Assembly: GCA_965248995.1 (NCBI GenBank)
Contig: CBDFKY010000006.1
Location: 101,729-165,728, forward strand
DNA: 64,000 nt
Source: Rickettsiales bacterium
GTDB lineage: Bacteria; Pseudomonadota; Alphaproteobacteria; Rickettsiales; UBA998
Reading direction: 5' to 3'
Of this stretch, positions 11,592 to 26,333 are shown one piece after another. The position numbers and the translations under genes were made by a program. The notes below the pieces were generated by a model. The model had not been told where the DNA came from. It ran no database searches and saw only the letters and a program-made list of their open reading frames with translations. How positions within the stretch are numbered: position 1 is the first letter of the stretch; every line of letters begins with the position of its first letter.

Positions 11592-11605
11592 CTAAGCCGC
11601 TTTCG
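11592..11605. repeat. 14-bp direct repeat CTAAGCCGCTTTCG, orphan copy (left edge of islet)
   Basis: Exact match to 13115-13128, which is the stop codon and last codons of ohr. Confidence 0.45.
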
Positions 11606-11876
11606 AAAAGTGCAAAAGTTTTTTCGGCATTATGGTCATAGGAGAATATCTGCTTTTCAAAGGGATAGAGATGGACGTAATTATTCATCCGCGATTAAAA
11701 CGCTCTAGTCTTAATTCTCTCAATAGTCTGACCATGCTGGCCTATGCGCGCCGCCAACTTTTGCTCAAAATTCGAATTTATTTAAAAGTTTTGTTCACAA
11801 AAATGTAATAATTATGTAGTATAGATTAATAATATTTAAATAAATAATAAATTAACTAAAGTATAAGGTTGTCCAT

Positions 11877-12941
11877 ATGTTTAAGAAAAACCTGACTTTT
11901 ATTGACCTTTCATCGCAAATTAACGAAATTTTATCTAAAATCAACGGTGCTGGAACAGCTGCCGGATTTAATGGAAAAATAGAAATTGCCTACGACCCAA
12001 CAGAAAATATCGATTTCCAAAACCTTGAAAATCAAAAAAAATATGTTGTTGACCTGATTGTTAATGATACTTCGAAAAAGATGCAGAAATATACTGAATT
12101 GTTCGATAAAGGTATCATGTCTGCTGAAGAAGCAACGTATCATCTCTACAATGATCCACGTCAGCATGAAGATTTAATCTTCTCCTATTCTGAAAAAGGT
12201 GGAATGATTCAGTCTGCTGAAATAGCTGATAATATTCAATTTACTCCAAACGCAGCGCCTTCAATTGTGTTTGTAGAAAATAATGAGGAATATTTTATTC
12301 AAGGTACAATGAAAGATGAAGCCGGAAAAATTACGCTCATTACTGGCAGTCCACCCGGTCAGCAGACAGATTACAGTGCCTTAGAGAAGCTAGTGGGATC
12401 AAATATCATAGAACATGATATCGGGCACGCCATCGGTGGTGCAACATTGCTTGATCCAGATGGTACTTTAGTAACTAATGATATGCCGGAAGCTATTGTT
12501 GGTTATTTAGTGTCTGAGCTTATATCACACGGAATTACCGGTGAACTGCGAAATACTAAAACTGGCTATGCTCCGACAGATCCTAACGATCCGGTTTCGA
12601 CACCAGAGAATTTTATCAATAATGTGAACTTACTTAACGAATTACTTCCAGGGTTGGGTTTTGATAAGGTTATCGATTCATATAAGAAACAAGGAGAAGG
12701 TTTGATAGAACCGGACTCTGAAACAAGGCTGTATGCTTTAGCTGCAGGATTAAGAGCATATGATCGATTTTTTAAAGATTTTGACCAGCTACCTGCTATG
12801 AACGAATATCCCGGAGAAAAACTTGGGCCTAGTAAAGAAGAGCTGGCATTCAGAAATTCTGAGCCTGATACTAATTTGCATGCCGCGTCATGTAAGGTCG
12901 AGAAAATGCATAATTATTACAATGGCATACAATTGCACTGA
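11877..12941 (+). CDS. hypothetical protein with degenerate metzincin-like motif (AT-rich islet)
   Basis: 354 aa in a very AT-rich segment. IIEHDIGHAIGG resembles HEIGHAIG of zinc metalloproteases, but with Asp in place of the catalytic Glu. Confidence 0.6.
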   Translation: MFKKNLTFIDLSSQINEILSKINGAGTAAGFNGKIEIAYDPTENIDFQNLENQKKYVVDLIVNDTSKKMQKYTELFDKGIMSAEEATYHLYNDPRQHEDLIFSYSEKGGMIQSAEIADNIQFTPNAAPSIVFVENNEEYFIQGTMKDEAGKITLITGSPPGQQTDYSALEKLVGSNIIEHDIGHAIGGATLLDPDGTLVTNDMPEAIVGYLVSELISHGITGELRNTKTGYAPTDPNDPVSTPENFINNVNLLNELLPGLGFDKVIDSYKKQGEGLIEPDSETRLYALAAGLRAYDRFFKDFDQLPAMNEYPGEKLGPSKEELAFRNSEPDTNLHAASCKVEKMHNYYNGIQLH

Positions 12942-13114
12942 TATTTATAAAAAAATTCCAGCTAAGTGAATTTTGGAAAATGAGTTAGTATAGTCGTTAA
13001 AGATTTTTACAGAATTTTGAAAGTAATTGAGCCTGCATTCCCTGGATAAGCGAAGATACGGTAATGATAGATACCGGATTTCCGCTTATCCTGAAAATGC
13101 AAAGAAGCGTTATC

Positions 13115-13128
13115 CTAAGCCGCTTTCG
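13115..13128. repeat. 14-bp direct repeat CTAAGCCGCTTTCG, functional copy (3' end of ohr)
   Basis: Exact match to 11592-11605. Confidence 0.45.
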
Positions 13129-13549
13129 CAACCGCCTGGTTGTTGGCTTTCAGCGTCACCTCGATATTGCCGCGGGTCGCCTTGGAATACGGGCAGATCT
13201 GGTGTGCGGCTTCCACCAGTTTCTGCGCCGCTGCAGCGTCCAGCGACGGGATCGTCACGTCCAGCACCACGCTGATGGAATAACCGTCGTCGCCCTGATT
13301 GAGACTGACATCCGCTTTCACTTCCGCATCCGCCGCCGAAACATTCTGTTGTTTGGCTACCGCTTCGATCGCACTGCCGAAACAGGCGGCGTACCCGCAG
13401 GCGAACAGTTCTTCGGGATTGGTCGCTCCCGGTTTAGCGTTAGCTGTGCCAGCGGTACCCAGATCACAGGAAAGGTTGCCGTTTACCGTTGCCGCGTGAC
13501 CGTTTCTTCCGCCTTTCGCCGAGGCATGCGCCGTAAAGAGTGTTTTCAT
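13115..13549 (-). CDS. ohr: organic hydroperoxide resistance protein (OsmC/Ohr family)
   Basis: 144 aa. The two conserved Cys contexts (ELFACGYAACF and QICPYSKATRGN) are typical of Ohr. Confidence 0.9.
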   Translation of the reverse strand: MKTLFTAHASAKGGRNGHAATVNGNLSCDLGTAGTANAKPGATNPEELFACGYAACFGSAIEAVAKQQNVSAADAEVKADVSLNQGDDGYSISVVLDVTIPSLDAAAAQKLVEAAHQICPYSKATRGNIEVTLKANNQAVAKAA

Positions 13550-13639
13550 AAATCAATGCTCCTGGTTGTTGATTTTCCTTTTACCGCATTCATCTATACC
13601 CTGTTCGGGTTAAAAGGGAATATTTTTATCCGGCATGAT

Positions 13640-14539
13640 TCATGATCCGGCCCGCACGCCGATCAGGTGGCAGATGGTGCGCGTCAGCATGGAGCGGTTG
13701 AGCGTGTAGAAATGAAATTCCTCCACGCCCTCCAGCCGCAGGCGGTGGCAGAGCGACGCCGTCACGTAGGCGGCCGTCTGGTTGTGCAGGTCGTGATCGT
13801 CATGGATGCTCTCGAACAGGTGGTTCAGCCAGTCGGGCACTTTCGCGCCGCACATGGCTGCGAATTTGCGCAGCTGTTTGATGTTGGTCACCGGCAGGAT
13901 GCCCGGCACGACCGGCACCGTGATTCCGGCTTTACGTACCTTGTCCAGGAAACGCAGATACGTTTCCGCCTCAAAGAAAAACTGCGTGATAGCGCGCTTG
14001 GCGCCGGCGTCGATCTTGCGTTTCAGATGGTCGATGTCCGTCGCCGCGTCCACCGCCTCCGGATGCGTTTCAGGGTAGGCGGCGACACTGATTTCGAACG
14101 GATGCCGCTTGAGGAGCCCGGCTACCAGATCCGCTGCATACGCATATCCTTGGCTGTGAGGAACATAGGCCTGCTGCTCCGGCATGTCGCCCCGCAGCGC
14201 TACGATATGCCGGACGCCTGAGAGCCAGTATGCGTCCGCGACCGCATCTATTTCCTCCGACGACGCTCCGACGCAGGTCAGGTGGGCGGCGGATTTGAGG
14301 TCCGTTTCCGCCATAATGCGGCTGATGGTGGCGTGGGTGCGTTCCCGCGTCGTCCCGCCGGCGCCATAGGTCACCGACACGAACGCGGGCTTCAGGGGAA
14401 GAAGCGCCTGAACCGAAGTCCAGAGGCCCGCTTCACTTGCGGCGTCCTTCGGGGGGAAAAATTCGAACGACACCGCTGCCGGAGGCGTGGTATAAAACTG
14501 ATAAAGCCGTTGTTGAAGAATTTCGCTGAAGGCCGGCAT
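13640..14539 (-). CDS. metF: 5,10-methylenetetrahydrofolate reductase
   Basis: 299 aa. SFEFFPPK, VTYGAGG and ITVPVVPGILP motifs. Confidence 0.93.
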   Translation of the reverse strand: MPAFSEILQQRLYQFYTTPPAAVSFEFFPPKDAASEAGLWTSVQALLPLKPAFVSVTYGAGGTTRERTHATISRIMAETDLKSAAHLTCVGASSEEIDAVADAYWLSGVRHIVALRGDMPEQQAYVPHSQGYAYAADLVAGLLKRHPFEISVAAYPETHPEAVDAATDIDHLKRKIDAGAKRAITQFFFEAETYLRFLDKVRKAGITVPVVPGILPVTNIKQLRKFAAMCGAKVPDWLNHLFESIHDDHDLHNQTAAYVTASLCHRLRLEGVEEFHFYTLNRSMLTRTICHLIGVRAGS

Positions 14540-14785
14540 GAAAACTCTGTCGTTTGAAAACTGAAGAAAAATTGTGGTGAGGTTACACGGAAAGCGGAAG
14601 CGTCCGCCATATGTTTATTCGCCCCCGGTTAAATTCATTTTAACTATACAGTGCTGCCCAAGCGGGTATATGAACAATGCATATCGATATTTAACTCGTG
14701 TGATGGCTTAGTCCACCGCGATGTCCAGATTGAAATATTTTTGTAACTTCCAATTTTTTGTAACTCCCTGGCAGTGGAAATTTAA

Positions 14786-15508
14786 ATGAACGTGCGCCTT
14801 TTTCTCCTACAAAGCATGAAACCGCTCTGCCTGGCGGTCGTGGTGGGGATGATGGTGTCCGCCCCCGCTGTTGCCGCCGCTTCGGATGATCCGGCCGAGC
14901 CGGTCAACCGGGCGATTTTCCGCTTTAACGAATATGCCGACCGATATGTGCTCAAACCCGTCGCCGAAGGCTATGACTATATCGTCCCCGACCCCGGCAA
15001 GCGCGGGATTTCCAATGTGCTGCACAACCTCACCATGCCCGTGACGTTCGTCAATTCGATCCTGCAGGCCGATCCGGGCAACAGTTTCGAGTCGCTCTGG
15101 AGTTTCGTGCTGAACAGTACGTTCGGCATCGCCGGAATCTTCGATTTTACCGGAGCCAATACGGATCTCGACGTGCATGACGAGGATTTCGGCCAGACGC
15201 TCGGTACGTGGGGAGTGGGCGCAGGGCCGTATCTGGTGCTGCCGCTGTTCGGTCCTTCGAATCTGCGGGATCTGGGCGGAATGGGCGTAGATTACGCCGC
15301 CGATCCTTTCAATTACGTCGATAACGATGCCTTCGTGTACGGACGTGCCGGGCTCGGCGTCGTCGACACGCGCTACCGCGCCCTCAAACTGGTGGATGAC
15401 GTGTACGCCCAGTCACTCGATCCGTACGCCACGTTCCGCAGCGGCTATGCGCAGCGGCGGCGTGCCCAGATAGTCAATACCAGAAGCAGCGATGAAAACG
15501 AGGAGTAA
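14786..15508 (+). CDS. mlaA: MlaA/VacJ family lipoprotein
   Basis: 240 aa. Signal peptide, then DPAEPVNRAIFRFNEYADRYVLKPVAEGY, the typical VacJ core. Confidence 0.85.
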   Translation: MNVRLFLLQSMKPLCLAVVVGMMVSAPAVAAASDDPAEPVNRAIFRFNEYADRYVLKPVAEGYDYIVPDPGKRGISNVLHNLTMPVTFVNSILQADPGNSFESLWSFVLNSTFGIAGIFDFTGANTDLDVHDEDFGQTLGTWGVGAGPYLVLPLFGPSNLRDLGGMGVDYAADPFNYVDNDAFVYGRAGLGVVDTRYRALKLVDDVYAQSLDPYATFRSGYAQRRRAQIVNTRSSDENEE

Positions 15509-15511
15509 GGA

Positions 15512-16120
15512 ATGAAACGTCTCTTTCAATGGATACCGATAATCATCATGGGGCTGGCCTTCAGCCCTAACGCTTCCGCGGCGCCCGCCACGCAGCAGGC
15601 GGCGACGCCGGAGCAGGCGTTCGTCTATGAGGTGGCGGGCGAGGTGTTGAGCGCTGTGCGCGCCGCGCCTTCCAACGCGGATGCGAAACGCACGCTGGAA
15701 GCGGTGTTCACCAGATACGTGGATATCGAATGGGTGGGCCAGTTCGTGCTGGGCCGTCACTGGAAGGAGGCGAAGCCGGAGCAGCAGCAGCGTTTCCTCA
15801 GCGCTTACCGTTCGTTCATGGTTGGAAGCTATACCACGCGACTGCGGGATTATTCGGGGGATGATTATACCGTTTCAGCCCCGCGCACTGCCGGCGAGGG
15901 TCGCTCGGCTCTCACCATGAAAGTGAAGCGTGCGCAGGGCGCGCCGGTCGTCATCGATTACAAGATCCGTAAAAGCGGAGACGGGTACAAGATTTACGAT
16001 CTGGTGGTGGAAGGCATCAGCCTGATCACCACCCAGCGCTCGGAATTCGATTCGGTGGTCAGTCAGAACGGACTGGATTTCCTGATCGACGCGCTCGTGA
16101 AGAAATCCGCTGTGAAATAA
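15512..16120 (+). CDS. mlaC: phospholipid-binding protein MlaC (Ttg2D/toluene-tolerance family)
   Basis: 202 aa. Signal peptide. FVLGRHWKEAKPEQQQRFLSAYRSF and YKIYDLVVEGISL motifs. Starts 4 nt after mlaA. Confidence 0.8.
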   Translation: MKRLFQWIPIIIMGLAFSPNASAAPATQQAATPEQAFVYEVAGEVLSAVRAAPSNADAKRTLEAVFTRYVDIEWVGQFVLGRHWKEAKPEQQQRFLSAYRSFMVGSYTTRLRDYSGDDYTVSAPRTAGEGRSALTMKVKRAQGAPVVIDYKIRKSGDGYKIYDLVVEGISLITTQRSEFDSVVSQNGLDFLIDALVKKSAVK

Positions 16121-16122
16121 TC

Positions 16123-17208
16123 TTGGGCGAGGCGAATCTTTTCCTCCCCGTCTGGTCGCTCGGCCTGATGAGCGGCACTTCGCTCGACGCGCTGGATCTG
16201 GCATTGATTCTGACGGATGGTCACCGGGTAGTTGAGCGCGGGCCCTGGTCGGACGTTGCGTTTCCGAAATCCCTTGCGGAGTCGTTGCGTGGATTGATGC
16301 ATGGAGAAGGGGACGCACTGCGGCTTGAACAGGAATATACGCTGTTCGTGGCAGGGTGCGTGGATATGTTTCTGAAGCAGCATCCTGCGTTTGAGAAAAC
16401 CGTTTCGATCATCGGTTTTCATGGACAGACCATCACGCACCGCCCGCTGGAGGGAATTACCTGGCAGCTCGGTAATCCCTCCCTGCTCGCCGAACGTACG
16501 GGTATCCCGGTGGCGGCGGATTTTCGTCGCCGTGACATGGCGGCGGGCGGACAGGGGGCGCCGCTGGTGCCGTTGTATCATGCGGCGCTGTCTGCCGATC
16601 TGCCGAAACCGCTAACTATCGTCAATATCGGCGGCGTGGCAAACGTCACGTATGTGGGAGAGAGTGAAGATGCATTGCTGGCATGGGACACCGGGCCGGG
16701 GAATGCGCTTCTGAATGACTGGATTTCTTTCCATACCGGAGAGACTTATGATGCGGACGGACGTTATGCGCGGGCCGGTTATGCGCATGCCTCTATTCTG
16801 GCGGGTTATATGAAAGACACGTACCTTTCGGCGATTCCGCCCAAGTCACTCGACCGCAATCATTTCTCGCTTGACACAGTGCGCGAGCTGTCGTTGCAGG
16901 ACGGGGCGGCGACCCTTACCGCGTTCACGGTGGAAGCGATTGCAAGAGCCGGGGATTTTTTCCCGCAACCGCCTACGCGATGGCTGATAGCCGGAGGTGG
17001 ACGTCATAACGCGGCGATCATGCAATCGTTGGCGGCAAGGCTGGGGCAGCCTGTCATCAACGCGGACGATCTCGGCTGGAGGGGCGATGCGATCGAAGCG
17101 GAAGCGTTCGCGTATCTCGCCGTTCGCTCCATGCGGGGCCTGCCGATCAGCCTGCCGGGAACGACGGGGGTGCGTGTTCCTACCAGCGGCGGCGGTCTCT
17201 ACACTTGA
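16123..17208 (+). CDS. anmK: anhydro-N-acetylmuramic acid kinase
   Basis: 361 aa. GLMSGTSLDALD N-terminal motif and IVNIGGVANVT. Apparent TTG start at 16123. Confidence 0.9.
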   Translation: MGEANLFLPVWSLGLMSGTSLDALDLALILTDGHRVVERGPWSDVAFPKSLAESLRGLMHGEGDALRLEQEYTLFVAGCVDMFLKQHPAFEKTVSIIGFHGQTITHRPLEGITWQLGNPSLLAERTGIPVAADFRRRDMAAGGQGAPLVPLYHAALSADLPKPLTIVNIGGVANVTYVGESEDALLAWDTGPGNALLNDWISFHTGETYDADGRYARAGYAHASILAGYMKDTYLSAIPPKSLDRNHFSLDTVRELSLQDGAATLTAFTVEAIARAGDFFPQPPTRWLIAGGGRHNAAIMQSLAARLGQPVINADDLGWRGDAIEAEAFAYLAVRSMRGLPISLPGTTGVRVPTSGGGLYT

Positions 17209-17211
17209 GCG

Positions 17212-17910
17212 TTATTCCCTGGGCAGCAGGCGCTTTTTCTTGACGCCGACGGCGTTGCGGCTTTCCATGAAATCCTCCATGCGACGCGCGATATAATCCG
17301 ACGTCCGCTGCTCGAACTCGTCAAGGGAGTTGCGGAAATAATGATCCGCGCCGGTGAACAGTTCGTATTCCACGCCGTTCGAATGATTGGAGTGCAGTTT
17401 GCCGACCAGCTTGCCGACATCGGGGGCGTTGACGATATCGTCCCGGTCGCCCTGCAGGATGAGGCCGGACGCGGGGCAGGGGGTCAGGAAGGAAAAATCG
17501 TACTTATTGACCGGGGGAGACGCGGCGACGAATCCTTCGATCTCCGGGCGCCGCATCAACAGTTGCAGGGCGATCCACGCCCCGAAGGAAAAACCGGCGA
17601 TCCAGCAGGTGCAGGCTTCCGGGTTCTTCAACTGGATCCAGTCGAGCGCGGTGGCCGCGTCGCTCATCTCGCCGATGCCTTCATCGTACCGGCCCATCGA
17701 TTTTCCCACTCCCCGGAAATTAAAGCGCAGCACCGAAAATCCGTTATTCATCAACGACTGAAACAGGCGGTACACCACCTTGTTGTTCATCGTCCCGCCA
17801 TAAAGCGGGTGTGGATGCAGCACGATCGCCACGGGGGCGGTAGGGTTTTCATTATGGTGATAGCGTCCTTCCAGGCGACCTTCGGAACCGTTGAATATGA
17901 CTTCGGGCAT
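17212..17910 (-). CDS. alpha/beta hydrolase (COG2945-like)
   Basis: 232 aa. HPHPLYGGTMNNKVV and the nucleophile elbow GFSFGA. Confidence 0.85.
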   Translation of the reverse strand: MPEVIFNGSEGRLEGRYHHNENPTAPVAIVLHPHPLYGGTMNNKVVYRLFQSLMNNGFSVLRFNFRGVGKSMGRYDEGIGEMSDAATALDWIQLKNPEACTCWIAGFSFGAWIALQLLMRRPEIEGFVAASPPVNKYDFSFLTPCPASGLILQGDRDDIVNAPDVGKLVGKLHSNHSNGVEYELFTGADHYFRNSLDEFEQRTSDYIARRMEDFMESRNAVGVKKKRLLPRE

Positions 17911-17930
17911 GCGGCGTAAAACCTTCGGAG

Positions 17931-18000
17931 TGAAATAACCCCCTACCGTTACTTTAATTCCCTGCCGATTTCAATAGAGTAGTTAAACCCGTTTCCCATG
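17931..18000. repeat. diverged duplicate of the cysE 5' region (orphan copy)
   Basis: 17953-18000 aligns with 19087-19133 with 5 mismatches and 1 indel, and both end in ATG. A weaker match extends back to TGAAATAACC (17931) versus TGAAAAACC (19076). Confidence 0.75.
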
Positions 18001-18208
18001 CACAAGGGTCAACGCCTGAAACAGCTTCAAAAGGAAACGAAGAACCGGCAAAACCTGCTTTATGGAAGCAGCGAACTATGATGATACGGTATCGGTCTGA
18101 ATATCAGGACAGGAGATTTATCGGGAAGGACCGGTGCTTCCGGCAATCGGTCGCGAGCTTTGCAAATATATTTTTACTTTTTAAAAGTCCCACGCGGCAA
18201 TACGGAAA

Positions 18209-18553
18209 ATGAACTTCAGCGTTTTGAATTTGAAACTGACCGACCTATGGCTGGAAATGCTTTCGGAAAATGAACAGGAAATTTACATCAATCATGTGTG
18301 TGGATCTACCATTTCAGATGCAAGACGACAAAACCGGAATGCCATTATTCCTTTTATCCTCCAAAGCGCGCTGCTTGGTAAAGACCTGGAAACGATCATA
18401 TCCACTTTTCCTAGCGTGCTGATCAAAGATTACTGTACAAGTAATCTATCCGAATGGCCAGCTCGTAAGGAACCTATCGGTCCTGAACTGACAAGTTTCG
18501 TCGCGTTCGTTTTCCATATGTTAACCGGAAGCGAAAACCACAGGAGAAGATAG
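18209..18553 (+). CDS. hypothetical protein (AT-rich islet)
   Basis: 114-aa open frame in an AT-rich insert. No motif recognised. Confidence 0.4.
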   Translation: MNFSVLNLKLTDLWLEMLSENEQEIYINHVCGSTISDARRQNRNAIIPFILQSALLGKDLETIISTFPSVLIKDYCTSNLSEWPARKEPIGPELTSFVAFVFHMLTGSENHRRR

Positions 18554-18736
18554 AGTGCCTATTGCATAAGCGTTACAAAAGCTACCTCCTTTGGAAAATT
18601 CTCCCGTCCCGAGATGATCAATCCAAAAAAGGTTCGGTCATCTTAGCAAAAAGCATTGTCAAGTTTGTTTTAGGAAAAATTAAAAGAGATGAATGCGCTG
18701 GACTGGCGCTGCTCAAATGTCAAGGTCATGACACGA

Positions 18737-18853
18737 TATAGTCATTCCGATTAAAAACCGTACGGTTTTTGTCGGATAAAATGACTATAACCATATATTT
18801 TATAGTGTTTTTATCCGAAAATTTCCGTACGGAAATTATTCGGAAACACTATA
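18737..18853. repeat. 117-bp tandem double-hairpin repeat, copy 2
   Basis: Same orientation as 188-304, with 6 differences. These include a compensatory T:A to C:G change in the inner stem of module B. Confidence 0.9.
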
Positions 18854-18916
18854 GTAGCGGAGATCGAGGAACTTTTCATCGCGATAAGCGAACTGCCTTA
18901 GAAAACTTTCTGTTTT

Positions 18917-18951
18917 GACCGCTGGCCTTGCATGGCAAGCGGTCTTTTTTT
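18917..18951 (+). terminator. rho-independent terminator-like hairpin with no ORF directly upstream
   Basis: GACCGCT-GGCC-TTGCAT-GGC-A-AGCGGTC stem followed by T8 (18945-18951). Confidence 0.5.
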
Positions 18952-19075
18952 CTGCGATTTTTCAAACTTTGCAGGGGTATCTTATTCTCCACATCGTTCA
19001 TGATATGGCTATCACCCATCTACGAGGTTGAGCGTCCAGTCCGCTGGATATAAAGTCAAGAGCCCCGGTTCGCTA

Positions 19076-19133
19076 CTGAAAAACCATTTAATTCCTTGCC
19101 GATTTGAATACAGCAGTTAAAACCGTTTCCATG
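19076..19133. repeat. cysE 5' region, functional copy of the duplicated segment
   Basis: Aligns with 17931-18000. Its terminal ATG (19131) is the likely cysE start. Confidence 0.75.
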
Positions 19134-19646
19134 TTCACCCGCATGAAGGAAGATATTGCCACGTTCCTGGAGCGTGACCCCGCCGCCCGCAGCCGTCTCG
19201 AAGTCATGCTCTGTTACGCCGGGCTGCATGCCGTCTGGCTGCACCGCATCGCGCATTTCCTGTGGAGGCGGCGGTTGAAACTGGCGGCGCGCATCGTCTC
19301 CCATCTTGCCCGTTTTTTGACGGGCATCGAAATCCATCCGGCGGCGACGCTCGGGCGAAGGCTGCTGATCGACCACGGCATGGGGATCGTCATCGGCGAG
19401 ACCGCTGAAGTGGGGGATGACGTCACCATGTATCACGGGGTGACGCTCGGCGGGGTTTCGCTGCATAAGGTGCGACGTCATCCCCGCATCGGCGACCGGG
19501 TGGTCATGGGCGCTGGCGCCAAGATTCTGGGCGCGATCACGGTAGGTAACGATGCGCGGATCGGCGCGAACGCCGTCGTCACGCGGGACGTGGAACAGGG
19601 CGCGACGATGGTCGGTATTCCCGCGATGATGGTGACAAAAGAGTGA
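19131..19646 (+). CDS. cysE: serine O-acetyltransferase (short form)
   Basis: [25 protein letters not shown]... plus hexapeptide repeats ([29 protein letters not shown]). The listed ORF starts at 19104, but the ATG at 19131 fits the family N-terminus. Confidence 0.88.
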
Positions 19647-19748
19647 CAAAGCGTCTCGCTTGAAACCGGCCGTTATCGGGGATTGCGGAATGAGCTTCCA
19701 AGAAGGGTTCATTTTTCTGTTCAGATAGGGTATAAAGAAAGCGTAAAT

Positions 19749-22700
19749 ATGGCGACGCTCCCTTCTGCCCTCTTTCGTCAGCGACTGCTGGTATCCTGCG
19801 CTATGCTGGCGTGCGGTGCGGGAATCGCTATGCCTGCCCCTGCTGCTGCCGCCAACATGGCCGCGCAGCTTCGGAAGGATTTCGCCCGTCTCACCTTGAA
19901 CGGAGCGGACGGCGCGAAAATGAAACCCTCCGCGAACGGGCGGGACGTGATCATCGAGTTCAATCAGCCGGTGCCGGTGACCATCGACGGGATCACGCAG
20001 AATCTGAAACCCTATATCCTTAATGCCCGCCAGTCGCCCGACCAGCGACAGGTGATCCTCACCATGCAGGACGATTATCCGATCCGCAGTTTCATCAGCG
20101 GCACTACGAGCGGGGTGGATATCCTGTTCAAGGGAAGGCCGAAGCCCGAGCGCGTGGTGACGGACAAGACACCCCTGCCTTCCACAACGCATCTTAACCC
20201 GTCAAAAGGGGTCGACGTCAAAGACTCGATACTGACTACATACAAAGGCGGGAAAAACAGCGTTTTCTCCACCCAACCATCCAATCCGGCGCTTAAGGTG
20301 GCAGAAACATCCGCTGTTCCTTCCGTGCCGCTGCTGACGAAGCAGCCGGTACAAACCCCATCTTCCGCGCCACGGCCAGAGCCAAAAGCGCCGAAGGTCA
20401 TCACCACCAAAGCTCCGGGTGTGGAAAAAGGGAGCCGGAAAAAAGAGTCGATACTGCAGACGAAGCCGGTTGCAAAGGCAGAGCCAAAACAGACCATTAC
20501 CGCGCTCGGCAAGCAGATTGCCGCCATTCCCATTCCCGTGAAGAAGCCCGAAATGCAAGAATCTGTCAAGACGGCGCAGGCTGCGCCGCCAGTTCTGCCT
20601 GAAAACACACCGATTCCGGCACCAGCCGCACCCAGGGCAAATCCGTTGCCGGAAGCGATTCCGGTGGTTCCGGAACCCACTTTGTCCACCAGGGAGGAAA
20701 AGGAACAGGCGGCGCAAGCGCGGATCAGCGCCCTGATGAACAGCCATCCGCTGGTGGTGGGATTGAAAGGCGGGCCGGTCGACGCGCAGCTTTTCTTTCC
20801 GTTCAACGAGCGTACCGCGGCGGCGAGCTTTACGCTCGGCCATAATCTCTATGTCGTATTCAACAGCAAGCGGCAGATCGATATTAAAAACCTGACGACT
20901 ATTCTGCCGCGCTATTTGACCTCCGTTCAGCAGCTGCCTTCCGAGAAGGGCACAGTGCTGCGTTTCGTGACGGACGGGGAGGTGTACACCACCGCCAACC
21001 TGACCGGCAACGGCTATGAATGGGTGGTCGACGCGTCCCGCCGGCCGAAAATTCCCAAGATCACCACCCTTCCGAACGTGGTGAGTGCCCCGCCGCTACC
21101 CGCCCACGTGGAGCTGGAAATGGTGCAGATGGGCGACGTCATCACGGTAATTGACTCGGTGAGCGGTGACGACGTGGACGTGGTGCCGGGATATGAGGGC
21201 AATCACGGCGTGTTCCCGGAGCGTATCCTGCCGGACGCGACGGTGCTGCGTACCGGGCAGGGGATGGCGTATCTGCCGACGCGCCCGGATGTGCGCCTGA
21301 TGAAATTGCGCAGCGGTTTACGCCTGAGCGTACCCGGCGGGCTCGCCGTTTCTAAAAATCTGGCCGCGCTGCCCGCCGATGCGGCGCTGGCGGATCAGCA
21401 GCAGAGCTTCACGTTTTATCCCTATAGCCAGTGGAAGGCGGCGGATAATACCGATTTTTATGCGAAAGAGCGTGAGCTGTTCGCGGATATCAGCACGGCG
21501 GACAGTAAGAAAGCGCCGCTGCTGCGGATGAAGCTGGCGGAACTGTATCTCTCGGAAGGGATGCATATGGAAGCGCTCGGCGTGCTGGACATCATCCATC
21601 AGGATACGCCGGATGTGTATGACGACTACCAGCTCTCGGCCTTGGCCGGAGCGGCGAATTTCATGATCGGGCGCTTCGATGCCGCAGCTCAGAATTTCAC
21701 CCACCCGACGGTGAAGGACGAGGAAGAAGCGAAAATGTGGCAGCGGATGCTGGAGGTGCTGGACGGGGCGGGGAAAAATTTCGATTACTTTACGTATAAC
21801 CAGCATTACATCCGGTTCTATCCGCCGGATATGCGCCGCCGCATCGCCCTGCTCGCCGCGGATAACGCCCTCGCGCAGGGGAAAATCGAGGCGGTGCAGA
21901 AGATTTTCGCAGGCCTGGCACAGGATAAGCTGACGGATTCGCTGGAAGGGTACAAACAGTATATGTTGGGGCGGATTTATGCCGAGGCCGGAAAATTCGA
22001 CAAGGCGGAAGAGAAACTGAAACCGCTGATCGACAATCCCGAGGACCGCTTTCTGCGGGCCCGCGCCGCATTCACGCTGGCGACCTCGAAATATAAAGCG
22101 GGGTTGATCGACCGGCCGGCGCTGATCGCCGCGCTGGAGCCACTGCGCTATGTCTGGCGGGGGGATGCGTTCGAGCTGAACCTGCTCAACCTGCTGGGTG
22201 AACTGTATGCCAATAACGGACAGTATCTGGATGCCCTGCGCGCCTGGAACGATGCAGTGACGTACTACCCGGATACCGCCGTGGCGCGTGACGCCAGCGG
22301 TAGGATGGCGGCGGCGTTCGTCTCCCTGTTTAATGAGGGGAAGGCAAATAATCTCACCCCGCTCAGCGCGCTGGCGCTGTATTACGAGTTCCGGGACTTG
22401 ACGCCGCTCGGCCGCCCGGGGGACGTGATGATCCAGCACCTTGCCGACCGGCTGGCAGGCGTCGACCTGCTCGACCGCGCCGCCTCGCTGCTGCAGCATC
22501 AGGTGACCTACCGGCTGGAGAAAGAAGAGCGCAGCCGCGTCGGCGCGCGTCTGGCGCTGATCTACCTGCTCAACCGTGAGCCGGACAAGACGCTGGAGAC
22601 GCTGGAGTTGACCGGCTACGGCGACAATGGCGCGGACCTCAACCGTAAACGCAACCATCTGGCGGCGCTCGCCCAGGCCAAGCTCGGCAACTGGCAGCGG

Positions 22701-23117
22701 GCGCTGAATTTGCTGCGCGACGATTTCAGCCCGGAAGCGAAACTGATCCGCGCCGATATCTACTGGGACAACAAGGACTGGGACAACGTCGCCAAGTCGG
22801 TCGAGGATATCATGGCCAGCCGTAAGGATATCACGGCGCCGCTGAATGATGAGGAAACGCAGGCACTGCTCAAGATGGCGGTGGCATATACCTACCGGCA
22901 CGAGACCGACCAGCTGCAGTACCTGCGGGATTATTTCCTGCCGCTGGTCAAGGACAAGCAGCGGAAAGACACGCTGGATTTCATCACCTCCGGTATCGAT
23001 CCCGTCAACCGTAACACCATCGAGCGCCTAAGCGCGGAAATGGGCAAGATGAAAGGGTTTCTGGATAATTACAAGGTGAGCCTGAGTAAGGAAGGGCTTA
23101 GCAGCGTGATTGATTGA
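19749..23117 (+). CDS. large secreted TPR-repeat protein with proline-rich linker
   Basis: ATG at 19749 gives a signal-like N-terminus (LLVSCAMLACGAGIAMPAPAAAA). A Pro/Ala/Lys-rich spacer covers about aa 170-330. The C-terminal half is rich in TPR-like helical repeats. Confidence 0.8.
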   Translation: MATLPSALFRQRLLVSCAMLACGAGIAMPAPAAAANMAAQLRKDFARLTLNGADGAKMKPSANGRDVIIEFNQPVPVTIDGITQNLKPYILNARQSPDQRQVILTMQDDYPIRSFISGTTSGVDILFKGRPKPERVVTDKTPLPSTTHLNPSKGVDVKDSILTTYKGGKNSVFSTQPSNPALKVAETSAVPSVPLLTKQPVQTPSSAPRPEPKAPKVITTKAPGVEKGSRKKESILQTKPVAKAEPKQTITALGKQIAAIPIPVKKPEMQESVKTAQAAPPVLPENTPIPAPAAPRANPLPEAIPVVPEPTLSTREEKEQAAQARISALMNSHPLVVGLKGGPVDAQLFFPFNERTAAASFTLGHNLYVVFNSKRQIDIKNLTTILPRYLTSVQQLPSEKGTVLRFVTDGEVYTTANLTGNGYEWVVDASRRPKIPKITTLPNVVSAPPLPAHVELEMVQMGDVITVIDSVSGDDVDVVPGYEGNHGVFPERILPDATVLRTGQGMAYLPTRPDVRLMKLRSGLRLSVPGGLAVSKNLAALPADAALADQQQSFTFYPYSQWKAADNTDFYAKERELFADISTADSKKAPLLRMKLAELYLSEGMHMEALGVLDIIHQDTPDVYDDYQLSALAGAANFMIGRFDAAAQNFTHPTVKDEEEAKMWQRMLEVLDGAGKNFDYFTYNQHYIRFYPPDMRRRIALLAADNALAQGKIEAVQKIFAGLAQDKLTDSLEGYKQYMLGRIYAEAGKFDKAEEKLKPLIDNPEDRFLRARAAFTLATSKYKAGLIDRPALIAALEPLRYVWRGDAFELNLLNLLGELYANNGQYLDALRAWNDAVTYYPDTAVARDASGRMAAAFVSLFNEGKANNLTPLSALALYYEFRDLTPLGRPGDVMIQHLADRLAGVDLLDRAASLLQHQVTYRLEKEERSRVGARLALIYLLNREPDKTLETLELTGYGDNGADLNRKRNHLAALAQAKLGNWQRALNLLRDDFSPEAKLIRADIYWDNKDWDNVAKSVEDIMASRKDITAPLNDEETQALLKMAVAYTYRHETDQLQYLRDYFLPLVKDKQRKDTLDFITSGIDPVNRNTIERLSAEMGKMKGFLDNYKVSLSKEGLSSVID

Positions 23118-23148
23118 AAGCTGTAAATCCTGCTTTGGTTCATTCGTC

Positions 23149-24054
23149 ATGTATTTTTCACAAGAAGATATTTTACAGTTCAAAGAAGGGTGGATTCTTA
23201 TGAATCACCAATACGAGCAGCTCAAGTTTTCATGGTCATGGGCTCAATTTCAAACAGAAAAAGGGAAAGAATACGCTCTGCATGGATTCTCTAGAAGAAT
23301 AAGTACGCTCAAAAGATGCATTGACAATATCTTCGCTATCTTTCCGCCGGAAAAGCGTGAAAAATTGAATAGCGAAGAAATGAAAGACGTGGAAATCAAT
23401 CTGCAAGCGTTCTTCCTAAACATATTCGGCTGTCTGGATAATTTGATATGGGTATGGGTATTTGAGAAGAACGTAACTGATAAAAAAGGAAACTTTCTCG
23501 GAAGCGTGGATCGTAACAGGGCGTTGACGTATAGACATAAGGTTGCTTATCCGGATTTGAGCAAACAAAATGTTGATCAGTTTGTTTACAATTCCCTGCC
23601 TGATAGTTTGCAGGAAGAGGTTGCAAAAACCCAGACTTGGTTTCAGGCGCTTAAGATATTTCGGGATTCTTTAGCCCACCGCGTTCCTCTCTACGTTCCC
23701 AAGGTACATACGCCGGAGACGCAAGAACGGGAACGGCAACTGATGGCCGAGCGCAACTTTTTATATCAGGAAATAGAGTCGCTCAATGCGGCGTGGCGTG
23801 AAACATGCTCGCAAAATTTGTTCAGCGGCGCAATAGGAAAGGAAGCGATTGAAGCACATAATCTTTTGCTTGATCCAAAACTTGACCGTTTGGAGCAAAT
23901 GAGAAGTGAGTTGGATACCACCGCTAACAACGGATATGCGATGTTCGCTTCATACAACGAATTTTCAAGAGGCATACAATTTCATGACCAATTATTTTCT
24001 TCGTTCGCCACTATTCATCTGTTAGCTACCAACTTTCTAAAAGAGATGGCCTAA
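23149..24054 (+). CDS. hypothetical protein with HEPN-like Rx4H motif (AT-rich islet)
   Basis: About 301 aa from the ATG at 23149. Helical protein. FRDSLAHR contains R-x4-H. AT-rich. Confidence 0.55.
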   Translation: MYFSQEDILQFKEGWILMNHQYEQLKFSWSWAQFQTEKGKEYALHGFSRRISTLKRCIDNIFAIFPPEKREKLNSEEMKDVEINLQAFFLNIFGCLDNLIWVWVFEKNVTDKKGNFLGSVDRNRALTYRHKVAYPDLSKQNVDQFVYNSLPDSLQEEVAKTQTWFQALKIFRDSLAHRVPLYVPKVHTPETQERERQLMAERNFLYQEIESLNAAWRETCSQNLFSGAIGKEAIEAHNLLLDPKLDRLEQMRSELDTTANNGYAMFASYNEFSRGIQFHDQLFSSFATIHLLATNFLKEMA

Positions 24055-24056
24055 TT

Positions 24057-24395
24057 TTGTACTTCCTGATCAAAACCTTTCTCACCGCACTGATCGTGGC
24101 GGGCACTTCCGAACTAGCGCGGCGTTCCACCCTGTTCGCGGCGGCGGTCGTATCCCTGCCGCTCACATCCATTCTGGCGTTCATCTGGTTATATCACGAT
24201 ACCGGGGACAAGCATAAGGTGGCGGAATTGTCCACCTCGATTTTCTGGCTGGTCATTCCCTCTTTGTTGTTCTTTCTGGCATTTCCCTGGCTGATCAAAA
24301 CGGGGCTCGGGTTCGCACCCGCCCTTCTTAGCGCCTGCGTTTTGATGGCGGCGGGGTATGCTGCATTCCTGTATTGTATGAAAACACATCCATGA
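24057..24395 (+). CDS. DUF3147-like small membrane protein
   Basis: 112 aa, four hydrophobic helices, TTG start. N-terminus MYFLIKTFLTALIVAGTSELARRS. Confidence 0.7.
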   Translation: MYFLIKTFLTALIVAGTSELARRSTLFAAAVVSLPLTSILAFIWLYHDTGDKHKVAELSTSIFWLVIPSLLFFLAFPWLIKTGLGFAPALLSACVLMAAGYAAFLYCMKTHP

Positions 24396-24417
24396 CCGCC
24401 ACTGAAACCGTTTCGCC
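24336..24417. repeat. ~82-bp junction repeat, copy A (intact DUF3147 3' end plus orphan ddpX-like start)
   Basis: Aligns with 25696-25777 at roughly four positions in five, by eye. The core GGCGGCGGGGTATGCTGC and CCATGACC are identical. Confidence 0.85.
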
Positions 24418-24420
24418 GAT

Positions 24421-24500
24421 CAATGAATCAGCAGGTTATCTTTCAGTACAGTATCCGAAAGATTCATGGTTCAAATATCTCCGGCATAAATTCAAACTTT
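24421..24500 (-). pseudogene. relic of a related toxin 3' end plus immunity 5' end
   Basis: 24464-24496 matches 24975-25007 (TCATGGTTCAAATATCTCCGG[C/T]ATAAATTCAAA). The minus strand reads ...KFEFMPEIFEP* and then an overlapping ATG giving MNLSDTVLKDNLLIH*. Compare DDFEFIPEIFEP* and MKQTQKLYIDNLLTYL in the intact pair. Confidence 0.7.
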
Positions 24501-24574
24501 ATTTCTCTTTTATAAAATCATATCCTAGGAAGGTTTGCGCTCAATTCCGGACATAGCACAGCCCTTTTTACGGG

Positions 24575-24979
24575 TTACTGTCCAGCTAACACGAATCTGA
24601 TTTCCGGCCCGGTTTTTAACCGGTCTTTACTCTGCAAAATCATATGGAGGGCTTGTAACGCTTTATTCCGAATATATTGCATCTGCGGGGTATCAATGAA
24701 CATTCTATCCGGCATATCCTGTTTGGTGACATCAATAAGGTCTGATAATTCTTTAATCGCTTGGTCGGCCTGCGCATCGAAGATGGCCCATCCCTCGTTC
24801 ATCGCATCGCCAAGCCCGGTATCATCGAATACCATGCACACGCTTTCCGTATAGGAAATACACATGTCGCCTTGTTTGGCTCCCATTTCCCGCCATACCC
24901 GTTTTTGATAGTCATAGTCCGCCAAGTATGACAAGTAAGTAAGAAGATTGTCGATATATAATTTTTGTGTCTGTTTCAT
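24575..24979 (-). CDS. putative immunity protein of the cassette
   Basis: 134 aa, acidic. Its start overlaps the stop of the upstream gene (ATGA). No family recognised. Confidence 0.6.
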   Translation of the reverse strand: MKQTQKLYIDNLLTYLSYLADYDYQKRVWREMGAKQGDMCISYTESVCMVFDDTGLGDAMNEGWAIFDAQADQAIKELSDLIDVTKQDMPDRMFIDTPQMQYIRNKALQALHMILQSKDRLKTGPEIRFVLAGQ

Positions 24980-25617
24980 GGTTCAAATATCTCCGGTATA
25001 AATTCAAAATCATCGATGGGAATATGCGTCTCTTCCGGGCCTTTCCCCATTTTACCCGCTTTGTCCAGCCACTGGCCATTTTTCTTCCAGCGCACATAAG
25101 GCCCTTGTGAAATAGGGTATTCACTGTCAGGGTTGCCTTCCATCGTTCTGACTTCGTTATGTTTATTATAAGCGTCCGTATATCTGGTTCCTTTATCATT
25201 CTTTGCAGGATTTGTCATCCAATGATCGGGGATACCGTCCGGTTTAGGCAAGTCGGAATTCGCCGGATGGATGTCCCCCGTATCGTCCATAATCATGCCG
25301 GGATCATCACCGGCATCGCCCAACTCCGTGCCGGAATCATCGGCATGGAGCACGCCGGTGCCTGAGGCGTTGCCGCCTCCGCTTGTCCATTGTCCGCCGC
25401 CGTGGCCGCCCGCCGGAACGCGGGGTTGATCGGGATCGTACTTATACCCCAGCGTCGCTTCGATGGCCTGCAATCGCGATTCTGCCTGTTGCACTTCATG
25501 ATAAAGACGGGCGAGGACCGTTTTTTGTTCCGGCGGGTCCGGGGTATGCGCACGGTGCAGATGCGCATAATGACGACGGTTCGCTTCCAGTATCTTTTGC
25601 AGATTATCGTGATGCAT
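24976..25617 (-). CDS. putative polymorphic-toxin-like protein
   Basis: 213 aa. Helical N-terminus, Gly-rich linker PRVPAGGHGGGQWTSGGG, acidic spacer, then a basic C-terminal ~100 aa (GTRYTDAYNKHNEVR...PYVRWKKNGQWLDKAGK...ETHIPIDDF). Confidence 0.6.
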   Translation of the reverse strand: MHHDNLQKILEANRRHYAHLHRAHTPDPPEQKTVLARLYHEVQQAESRLQAIEATLGYKYDPDQPRVPAGGHGGGQWTSGGGNASGTGVLHADDSGTELGDAGDDPGMIMDDTGDIHPANSDLPKPDGIPDHWMTNPAKNDKGTRYTDAYNKHNEVRTMEGNPDSEYPISQGPYVRWKKNGQWLDKAGKMGKGPEETHIPIDDFEFIPEIFEP

Positions 25618-25695
25618 CCGTACTTCCTGAAAAAAATACCTCTATCGCGGCACGGTCATGTGCCGGAAGGGACGGTTTTCGCGCGCATCAACGCT

Positions 25696-25777
25696 TGCGT
25701 TTTGAGGGCGGCGGGGTATGCTGCGTTTCCGTATCGTATGAAACCGCACCCATGACCCTCGTTGAAATCAGCCCGCC
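25696..25777. repeat. ~82-bp junction repeat, copy B (relic DUF3147 3' end plus real ddpX start)
   Basis: Translates as ...ACVLRAAGYAAFPYRMKPHP*, against ...ACVLMAAGYAAFLYCMKTHP* in the intact gene. Confidence 0.85.
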
Positions 25778-26333
25778 GGACTATCCCGTCCTGATCGATA
25801 TCGCCTACGCCACCGCGAGGAATTTCACCGGTGCCCCGGTCTATGCCCGCCCCGGCTGCTACCTGCATGAAGGGGCGGCGGACTGCCTGAAGCAGGCGAT
25901 CTATTATGCCGCCGAGATCGGGTACCGTTTCAAGGTTTTCGACGCGTACCGTCCGGCGGAAGCGCAGTATATTTTGTGGGAACATACGCCGGACCCCAAT
26001 TTTCTCGCCCATCCGGAGCGGGGGTCGCCTCATTCACGCGGGGTGGCGGTGGATCTCACCCTGATCGACGCGGCGGGAAATGAGCTGGACATGGGAACGC
26101 CGTTCGACAGTTTCGTGCATCTCTCGCATCACGGCGCTTCGGGGATTTCACCGCAGGCCGCCCGTAACCGGCTGATGCTGCTCGGTATCATGACTTCCGC
26201 CGGGTTCGATTTCTACCGTAATGAATGGTGGCATTACCAGTTGTTCAACAGCCGAAATTATCCGCTGATCTATGATCGCGATACGCATCTCGGCATGATG
26301 AAGCCGGATCCCGCGCAGAGCCGTTCCGCCTGA
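25752..26333 (+). CDS. ddpX: D-alanyl-D-alanine dipeptidase (VanX/DdpX family)
   Basis: 193 aa from the internal ATG of listed ORF 25383..26333. FDAYRP, SPHSRGVAVDLTL and WWHY motifs. Confidence 0.88.
   Translation: MTLVEISPPDYPVLIDIAYATARNFTGAPVYARPGCYLHEGAADCLKQAIYYAAEIGYRFKVFDAYRPAEAQYILWEHTPDPNFLAHPERGSPHSRGVAVDLTLIDAAGNELDMGTPFDSFVHLSHHGASGISPQAARNRLMLLGIMTSAGFDFYRNEWWHYQLFNSRNYPLIYDRDTHLGMMKPDPAQSRSA

Follow-up and report, generated by a model that had tools for sequence, protein, structure and literature searches.

AT-rich islets flanked by copies of neighbouring gene ends in the genome of an uncultured alphaproteobacterium

Three AT-rich islets in a 64-kb stretch of contig CBDFKY010000006.1 (hereafter the window, the whole stretch of DNA that was analyzed) are each bracketed by direct repeats copying the end of an adjacent gene: the ohr stop (islet 1), the cysE start (islet 2), and the DUF3147/ddpX junction (islet 3). 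With a probability of about 0.4, the islets are read here as independent, lineage-specific insertions of foreign AT-rich cassettes at resident gene termini, made by host recombination or repair with the target duplicated on the spot. The window is part of a 511-kb contig in a genome of 2.43 Mb (22 contigs, 55.6% GC) of an uncultured alphaproteobacterium, the nearest public relatives of which are metagenome-assembled genomes labelled Rickettsiales, Rhodospirillaceae or Alphaproteobacteria. Below, C-numbers (C2, C5, C6, C14, and C22) denote contigs of this genome (label G000), and L- and G-numbers denote loci and genomes of relatives.

The backbone has a GC content of 0.56-0.65, with 0.66-0.78 at third codon positions (GC3), and within 11-26 kb three AT-rich stretches break it up (11.6-13.1, 17.95-19.09, and 23.1-25.25 kb). 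The local GC content is 0.27-0.42 in islet 1 (11.6-13.1 kb), 0.39-0.47 in islet 2 (17.95-19.09 kb), and 0.42-0.46 in islet 3 (24.4-25.25 kb). All repeats are positioned exactly at the GC steps, and those of islets 1-3 are unique pairs within the 2.43-Mb genome. In the permutation null for repeats at both edges of an AT-rich islet, the 99th percentile score was 13.5, and islets 1 and 2 scored 14.5 and 31.5, respectively; blastn between the two copies gave E-values of 1e-9 for the 44-nt repeat of islet 2 and 4e-16 for the 87-nt repeat of islet 3. The longest exact runs in the repeats are 18-21 nt or less (at most 18 nt inside the diverged ones), which is shorter than assembler k-mers and makes mis-joins in a de Bruijn graph unlikely. 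An earlier note on this DNA had described three AT-rich islets bounded by direct repeats of adjacent gene ends; both points are borne out, with a GC content of 0.27-0.47 in the islets against 0.56-0.65 in the backbone and with unique repeats of 14 bp (exact), 44 nt (89% identical), and 87 nt (79% identical) above the null.

Features of the islets (window positions; strand where one applies; basis in brackets):
11592-11605, islet 1, left orphan repeat copy, 14 bp CTAAGCCGCTTTCG (sequence read; unique pair in the genome; scan score 14.5)
11606-13114, islet 1, cargo, 1.5 kb, GC 0.27-0.42 (composition; single copy in the genome)
11877-12941, plus strand, orphan open reading frame (ORFan) of 354 aa, GC3 0.30 (no homologue; no Pfam, PHROG or PDB match)
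13034-13101, hairpin with 30-nt arms within islet 1, just past the ohr stop (80% complementary)
13115-13128, minus strand, islet 1, right functional repeat copy, the ohr stop TAG and last 11 coding nt (ohr reading frame read)
17953-18000, plus strand, islet 2, left repeat copy, 44 nt of cysE leader, a C and an orphan ATG, TTTCAAT kept (motif compared with 10 family genomes)
18001-19086, islet 2, cargo, 1.1 kb, GC 0.39-0.47 (composition; short spacer in relatives)
18209-18553, plus strand, orphan gene of 114 aa, GC3 0.46 (no family match)
18737-18853, one copy of a 117-bp double-hairpin miniature inverted-repeat transposable element (MITE), internal to islet 2
19087-19133, plus strand, islet 2, right repeat copy, 44 nt and the real cysE ATG, motif TTTGAAT (cysE matches hexapeptide/SATase families)
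24332-24418, plus strand, islet 3, left repeat copy, the functional last 21 DUF3147 codons, ATGA, and a 23-nt relic of the ddpX start (alignment)
24419-25691, islet 3, cargo, 1.3 kb (absent from relatives L095, L096, and L097)
24463-24496, minus strand, nested relic of an older toxin-end/immunity-start junction, 34 nt (33/34 identical to 24975-25008)
24575-24979, minus strand, putative immunity gene of 134 aa (weak DUF7945 match, E = 4e-5, below cut-off; start overlaps the toxin stop)
24976-25617, minus strand, polymorphic-toxin-type gene of 213 aa (N-terminal half GC-rich, C-terminal half AT-rich)
25692-25778, plus strand, islet 3, right repeat copy, a relic of the DUF3147 end (M>R, L>P, and T>P), ATGA, and the functional ddpX start (alignment)

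Repeat copies and empty sites

In three related metagenomic contigs (L095, L096, and L097), DUF3147 joins ddpX directly through an ATGA overlap, which marks islet 3 as a lineage-specific insertion. The L095 order of TPR gene, small open reading frame (ORF), DUF3147, and ddpX is that of the window, with nucleotide identities of 81% for the TPR gene and 78.5% for ddpX, and the L095 blastn match to ddpX begins precisely where the right repeat copy does, at 25692. The repeat (69 of 87 positions identical, 24332-24418 versus 25692-25778) spans the ATGA in which the DUF3147 stop and the ddpX start overlap, and both copies align to the one single-copy target of L095. Over the 64 nt up to the stop, 55 positions are shared by the left and right copies, 51 by the left copy and L095, and 53 by the right copy and L095. 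When L096 was added as a second outgroup, the informative sites among the four taxa numbered five for left plus right, one for right plus L095, and none for left plus L095; the islet 3 copies are thus each other's closest known relatives, in polarity tests that use only 64-87 nt. This grouping, an outcome that the earlier note had named as refuting, tells against its proposal that one copy came from another lineage; with an outgroup about 20% diverged, a donor within the genus could still fit.

The unique changes of the right relic (M>R, L>P, and T>P) fall at residues conserved in about 20 orthologues, and those of the left copy are mostly synonymous. The radical changes indicate that coding constraint was lost in the right, orphan copy, which retains the DUF3147 reading frame and lineage-specific residues. 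The earlier note had placed the functional copy on the right in all three islets, which fails for islet 3: there DUF3147 ends functionally in the left copy, its relic lies on the right, and the ddpX start is the one functional part of the right copy. What holds throughout is that the copy attached to the gene body is the functional one and the distal copy an orphan. Identity along the repeat falls from 31/33 in the first segment to 20/27 in the second; ATGA is kept in full (4/4), and 14/23 positions agree past the stop, which is still above chance (p = 7e-4). The possibility that DUF3147 is a xenologue, or that the whole 23.1-25.7 kb block was imported, was rejected on the GC3 of the first 91 DUF3147 codons (0.73, as in the backbone); the 70% amino acid identity of DUF3147 to L095 is also the usual rate of the family (69% between L095 and L096).

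At islet 2, the hydrolase and cysE genes adjoin in divergent orientation in 10 of 15 family genomes, with a spacer of 96-250 bp in nine of these 10 and of 1220 bp here. The short spacers of the relatives identify islet 2 as a lineage-specific insertion; to judge by them, the ancestral spacer seems to be preserved in full in the 87 bp between the hydrolase start and the orphan ATG. The 44-nt repeat (39/44 identical, 17953-17996 versus 19087-19130) contains one 1-nt indel and is followed by an ATG in each copy. The TTTCAAT motif of the leader, which is what the comparison of this repeat with empty-site relatives covers, is conserved in the family; it is kept in the left copy and reads TTTGAAT in the right. 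In one relative (locus L186 of genome G005), the hydrolase-cysE spacer measures 723 bp and holds an unrelated 195-aa ORF starting at the apparent ancestral cysE leader ATG; cysE sits after this ORF with a new AGGGAAG-type ribosome-binding site, and no flanking repeat is present. The position of this ORF suggests independent hits on the same site in another genus.

The repeat CTAAGCCGCTTTCG of islet 1 is exact over 14 bp between both copies, and the ohr ORF occupies 13115-13549 on the minus strand, with a match to the OsmC family. Islet 1 lies at a synteny break, and no syntenic relative was found that could provide an empty site. Genomes closer than about 80% nucleotide identity were absent from every collection searched; a metagenome scan with the 1144-aa neighbour protein returned zero matches, and one with cysE returned only relatives of at most 67% identity. 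The best relatives of DUF3147 are 72-76% identical, and at 80 ddpX loci DUF3147 is not the neighbour.

Cargo, mobility genes and recurrence in the genome

No homologue of the 354-aa protein of islet 1 was found among 5.8 billion proteins, and its gene is a true ORFan. The 114-aa gene of islet 2 was found neither in 200 genomes of the order nor in plasmids. Comparison of the islet cargo with PDB, phage, and plasmid sequences gave no match, and PADLOC gave noise only. The view that the islets carry orphan genes therefore stands for islets 1 and 2 and fails for islet 3, the 213-aa gene of which belongs to a polymorphic-toxin family. The hairpin next to the ohr stop is possibly a two-way terminator, as judged from its sequence; promoter and terminator scans were uninformative.

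The N-terminus of the 213-aa protein ('PDQPRVPAG..GGQWTS') is common to relatives with differing C-terminal toxin domains, namely colicin-E5-like (PF12106), CdiA RNase-A-like (PF18431), and lysozyme domains. The GC3 of the gene falls from 0.61 in the N-terminal to 0.45 in the C-terminal part, and the AT-rich C-terminal half together with the 134-aa gene looks like a swapped toxin-immunity module. With a shared N-terminus, a variable C-terminus, and an adjacent putative immunity gene, the islet 3 cargo would be classed as a polymorphic toxin-immunity cassette. The nested 34-nt repeat brackets the immunity gene and duplicates a second ATGA overlap, that of the toxin stop with the immunity start. 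A 39%-identical homologue of the 213-aa protein, accompanied by a 113-aa ORF, occurs in L093 (6001-6959) and L094 (1576-2534), where it is placed between the portal and prohead-protease/capsid genes of a head module resembling that of a phage or a gene transfer agent (GTA). This location suggests that the toxin family is normally virion-associated cargo.

The MITE of islet 2 is a passenger outside the insertion mechanism. This MITE-like 117-bp element has TATAGT..ACTATA ends and two hairpins with CCGTACGG and TTCGTACGAA cores; about 75-100 copies are present in the genome, many of them 100% identical and some in tandem (e.g., C14:200479-200812 and C14:126911-127384), and no Rfam match was obtained. 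Next to islet 3 lies a further AT-rich islet without a flanking repeat:
23118-24056, plus strand, gene of 301/314 aa (composition, ORFs)
It begins 31 nt past the TPR stop and ends 2 nt ahead of the TTG start of DUF3147 (ATG in relatives). The family of the 301/314-aa gene has 1047 members at E < 0.001, typically of about 250 aa, with no Pfam match, and the same slot in L095 holds an unrelated 110-aa ORF.

Tyrosine and serine recombinases (PF00589 and PF00239) were absent from the 64-kb window, and the cargo ORFs had no Pfam match to a transposase or integrase, as the earlier note had held for the islets. The nearest recombinase lies about 70 kb past the window end, about 110 kb from the islets; elsewhere the genome encodes eight tyrosine recombinases (six of them non-Xer) and one serine recombinase. 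The islet ends carry no terminal inverted repeats, and the cargo ends of the islets have nothing in common. Transposition of the insertion sequence (IS) type, against which the earlier note had argued, can be set aside together with the MITE and DNA transposon classes, given the lack of terminal inverted repeats and shared ends and the unique duplications of variable rather than fixed length (14, 44, and 87 bp). The tRNA-targeted genomic island class was likewise rejected, since no tRNA or tmRNA gene is present in 9-29 kb; no Rfam family was detected in 11-26.5 kb. As a candidate for a shared recombination core, AAACCGTTTC-like words were noted at several repeat ends, yet they are not enriched at GC steps (10% versus 9% background). 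Three integrase islands of 12.9-16.9 kb (C5:176856-191425, C6:316625-329554, and C5:66889-83877) are flanked by 55-65-bp repeats of tRNA 3' ends that are 98-100% identical; these are the classical integrative elements of the genome and are unlike the islets. The region C6:245441-252016 groups an integrase with a lone phage portal gene (C6:247985-249001) and a possible repeat-flanked AT-rich islet. The only capsid gene lies on a separate contig (C2:32051), and the C6 cluster may be a decayed prophage or part of a split GTA-like set.

In total, 134-199 AT-rich islets were counted in the genome, about five of which are true analogues of the repeat-flanked architecture. Flanking repeats were over-represented in both scans: 14 were found against 0.7 expected at a score of at least 14 in one, and nine against 1.5 at a score of at least 15 in the second. 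Inspection left the three islets, the nested 34-nt case, C2:172047/172843, and perhaps C6:250654/251951; the remaining pairs were MITE tandems, a repetitive extragenic palindrome (REP) family, toxin-gene arrays or chance matches. The best additional example of the architecture is C2:172047-172863, in which a 21-bp exact direct repeat surrounds a 775-bp AT-rich islet between divergent aceA and cobS-like genes; the cargo is a 217-aa ORFan with a GC3 of 0.34, and the repeat, a unique pair, ends 2 nt into the cobS-like ATG. The search for further islets of this form thus yielded the nested 34-bp case and the 21-bp case on C2, and most AT-rich islets here and in relatives proved to be repeat-free, among them the neighbouring islet at 23.1-24.06 kb, two in L095, and the 195-aa ORF at the cysE leader in G005.

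Several other loci from the scans were discarded or have a different structure. C22:313099 was rejected because the 35-bp hairpin repeat there is a member of a REP-like family with 19 copies. This family (ATTCCCGC(N4)GCGGGAAT, 19 sites, e.g., C22:313052-313706) includes one cluster that flanks a 167-aa AT-rich ORF and adjoins a 100-aa stand-alone GIY-YIG gene. The low-scoring pairs at C6:25410, C6:445908, C5:110320, C22:284067, and C14:75626 lie off islet edges or in ORFs and were attributed to chance. At C22:290974-296078, three copies of a coding segment of about 200 bp (81-87% identical) are separated by AT-rich spacers of 1.4 and 3.4 kb, and the locus looks like a polymorphic-toxin gene with orphan cassettes. 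At C5:195727-198796, part of a large Ca-binding-type gene is present twice as an 814-bp direct repeat (82% identical). Between the copies, the left of which is truncated by a frameshift, lies 1.5 kb of AT-rich DNA with a secreted-type ORF of 181 aa.

Origin of the duplicated gene ends

From these data we infer that the duplications arose in place rather than arriving with the cargo. This reading is ranked first for the sister relationship of the copies, for the single step that it requires for cargo that is still foreign, and for the rise of repeat divergence with cargo GC3: exact repeats accompany values of 0.30 and 0.34 and repeats of 79-89% identity values of 0.45-0.52, against 0.66-0.78 in the backbone. 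Insertion would proceed by host recombination or repair with no dedicated recombinase, and the event would duplicate 14-87 bp of the target, for example through a replicative template switch or staggered break repair, which would place it in the class known as insertion with long target duplication. The copy attached to the gene body would stay under selection and leave the gene intact, and the distal copy would become a decaying orphan. In overlapping gene pairs, only insertions that duplicate the overlap keep both genes whole, which would account for the repeats spanning ATGA at DUF3147/ddpX and at toxin/immunity.

A number of observations weigh against this reading. More than 95% of the AT-rich islets have no repeats, and the amelioration trend is based on four islets only. 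At islet 1, islet 2, and C2, one of the repeat boundaries lies 0-3 nt from a start or stop codon, a position unforced by selection and not predicted by random insertion on the spot; no model explains all three. The two parts of the islet 3 relic have decayed unequally (9/64 versus 9/23 mismatches, p = 0.017), which duplication at one time predicts only if the 64 nt upstream of ddpX were constrained or gene-converted, and third-position conservation there is raised only modestly (0.52-0.67 versus 0.43-0.48). This inequality is a hint in favour of the import view of the earlier note. In addition, insertion with long target duplication has itself no known mechanism, DNA breakage by restriction enzymes having been suggested as its cause (PMC2853133).

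Import from a close relative, next in what is a best-guess order, is considered unlikely but has several observations on its side. The cargo would already have been flush with the gene in the donor lineage, and a 'gene end plus cargo' fragment would have entered by transformation, GTA transfer or transduction, with one homologous crossover in the gene and one illegitimate joint nearby leaving the resident gene end as the orphan copy. Such a route would explain diverged long repeats without great age, the unequal decay at islet 3, and the larger number of synonymous changes in the functional copy than the few changes of the orphan copy would predict. Repeat boundaries at stop codons would follow from homology ending where the donor cargo begins, and where genes are tightly spaced or overlap, a product without the repeat would not be viable. 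The unrelated 195-aa ORF at the cysE leader ATG of L186 and the different cargo of L095 and this genome in the slots around DUF3147/ddpX are also in line with it. However, the islet 3 copies group together against their nearest relatives (5:1:0), the GC3 of 0.73 in the first 91 DUF3147 codons is that of the backbone, and the link between repeat divergence and cargo GC3 is not predicted. As the cargo composition is still far from the backbone, two recent steps would be required, from a distant AT-rich source to a relative and from there to this genome, and with both flanks syntenic a repeat-free double homologous exchange would be far likelier. We know of no documented case in which homology-facilitated illegitimate recombination gave a flanking duplication, which also counts against import. 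A DNA uptake sequence was sought as a sign of competence, and no over-represented word of that type was found; the top words derive from the MITE.

A third reading, and an improbable one, treats the islets as integrase-less remnants or satellites of site-specific integrative elements, comparable to cis-mobilizable elements (CIMEs), whose attachment site (att) mimics a gene end and so restores the target, the recombinase having been lost or acting in trans. The identity gradient at islet 3 (31/33, 20/27, and 14/23) would fit a crossover core, a selected coding mimic, and an unselected arm; the functional copy differs by synonymous changes, the repeats of the 3' cases end at the stop codon, and six non-Xer tyrosine recombinases are encoded elsewhere in the genome. 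Against this, at least four site specificities would be needed with no cognate recombinase, and the repeat sequences occur nowhere else in this genome. The identifiable integrase islands use tRNA genes and near-perfect repeats, the compact islets hold neither an integrase fragment nor room for one, their cargo ends share no sequence, and the neighbouring islet and those of relatives are repeat-free. That no common process was involved, with chance matches, duplicated regulatory motifs or assembly artefacts lying beside unrelated AT-rich genes, is highly improbable. It is true that 14-mer matches within a few kilobases are common genome-wide, that low-scoring pairs elsewhere are due to chance, and that the shared AAACCGTTTC motif is meaningless; yet the placement of repeats at both GC steps exceeds the permutation nulls by a wide margin, the homology of the 44-nt and of the 87-nt copies is unambiguous (E = 1e-9 and 4e-16), the DUF3147 frame and its lineage-specific residues persist in the orphan copy, and the exact runs are shorter than assembler k-mers. 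The reading by chance or artefact is already largely refuted.

A further reading, put forward here as a long shot, is a recombinase-free way of acquiring genes, general in this lineage, that places foreign cassettes precisely at start and stop codons and duplicates the adjoining 14-90 bp, the boundary between translated and untranslated DNA setting the break or template switch. If true, the host would drive insertion with long target duplication independently of restriction enzymes, and the same route could be the source of many of the approximately 150-200 AT-rich one-gene islets (often with defence or toxin genes), their repeats having mostly decayed. Any mechanism will have to account for the empty sites, the orphan-copy decay, and the codon-edge boundaries. 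A consequence for annotation is that recent gene gain is signalled by short orphan copies of gene termini next to AT-rich genes, even in the absence of mobility genes.

Comparison with known systems

The prophages 21 and e14 at icd have att sites that restore the target gene end upon integration. As in CIMEs and such gene-end-restoring att sites, the direct repeats of the islets copy the terminus of a protein gene, the gene is intact with its orphan end displaced, and integrase-less versions exist; the islets differ in the lack, in this genome, of any cognate integrase or of a sister element sharing their att, in their four unrelated targets, and in their size of 1.1-1.5 kb. Homology-facilitated illegitimate recombination was reportedly described by de Vries and Wackernagel in 2002 in naturally transformable bacteria, with products said to delete or replace recipient DNA. 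It resembles the islets in that foreign DNA is fixed by one homologous anchor and an illegitimate joint without mobility genes, and differs in the flanking duplication present here. In neisserial minimal mobile elements, flanking repeats are absent and transfer is by double homologous exchange. The slot between TPR and DUF3147 is like them in holding differing cargo in relatives (a 301-aa gene here and a 110-aa ORF in L095), whereas the three islets have flanking repeats. Further examples of gene-end-restoring att sites are the dusA-specific islands (PMC4482086). The H47 genomic island of E. coli has short direct repeats and no recombinase, and its excision is independent of RecA and of recombinases (Azpiroz & Lavina 2017, PMC5426353). 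H47 is similarly a small repeat-flanked island lacking a recombinase, and the evidence on it is from excision. The cargo of islet 3, and this cargo only, resembles polymorphic toxin loci in its conserved N-terminus, variable C-terminal toxin, adjacent immunity gene, and 34-bp junction relic; such loci account for the nested repeat and not for the duplicated termini of DUF3147/ddpX, ohr or cysE.

Insertion with long target duplication (Nobusato et al. 2000, Gene 259:99; Furuta, Abe & Kobayashi 2010, PMC2853133) was described for restriction-modification genes in H. pylori, Haemophilus, and others, with unique repeats of 30 to >400 bp (PMC2853133). In the published cases, mobility genes are absent, the repeats match a single target in an empty-site strain, and some overlap the last 2-15 bp of a gene (PMC2853133). 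The islets agree with them in an insert of a few kilobases with atypical GC content, in the lack of a transposase or integrase, in unique direct repeats of variable length, in the empty sites of relatives (islets 2 and 3), and in the single-copy target of L095 (islet 3). Relative to the >30-bp repeat length of this class, islets 2 (44 nt) and 3 (87 nt) lie above it and islet 1 (14 bp) and C2 (21 nt) below. The published repeats are 93-100% identical and two of those described here 79-89%, which makes the islet 2 and 3 events the older ones. The cargo also differs, since an ORFan, an orphan gene, and a toxin-immunity pair are found in place of restriction-modification genes, which argues for a process rooted in the host or in general repair rather than in the cargo. 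The closest known phenomenon that the islets match is thus insertion with long target duplication, here with non-restriction cargo and with the same anatomy recurring around an ORFan, an orphan gene, and a toxin-immunity pair in an uncultured alphaproteobacterium.

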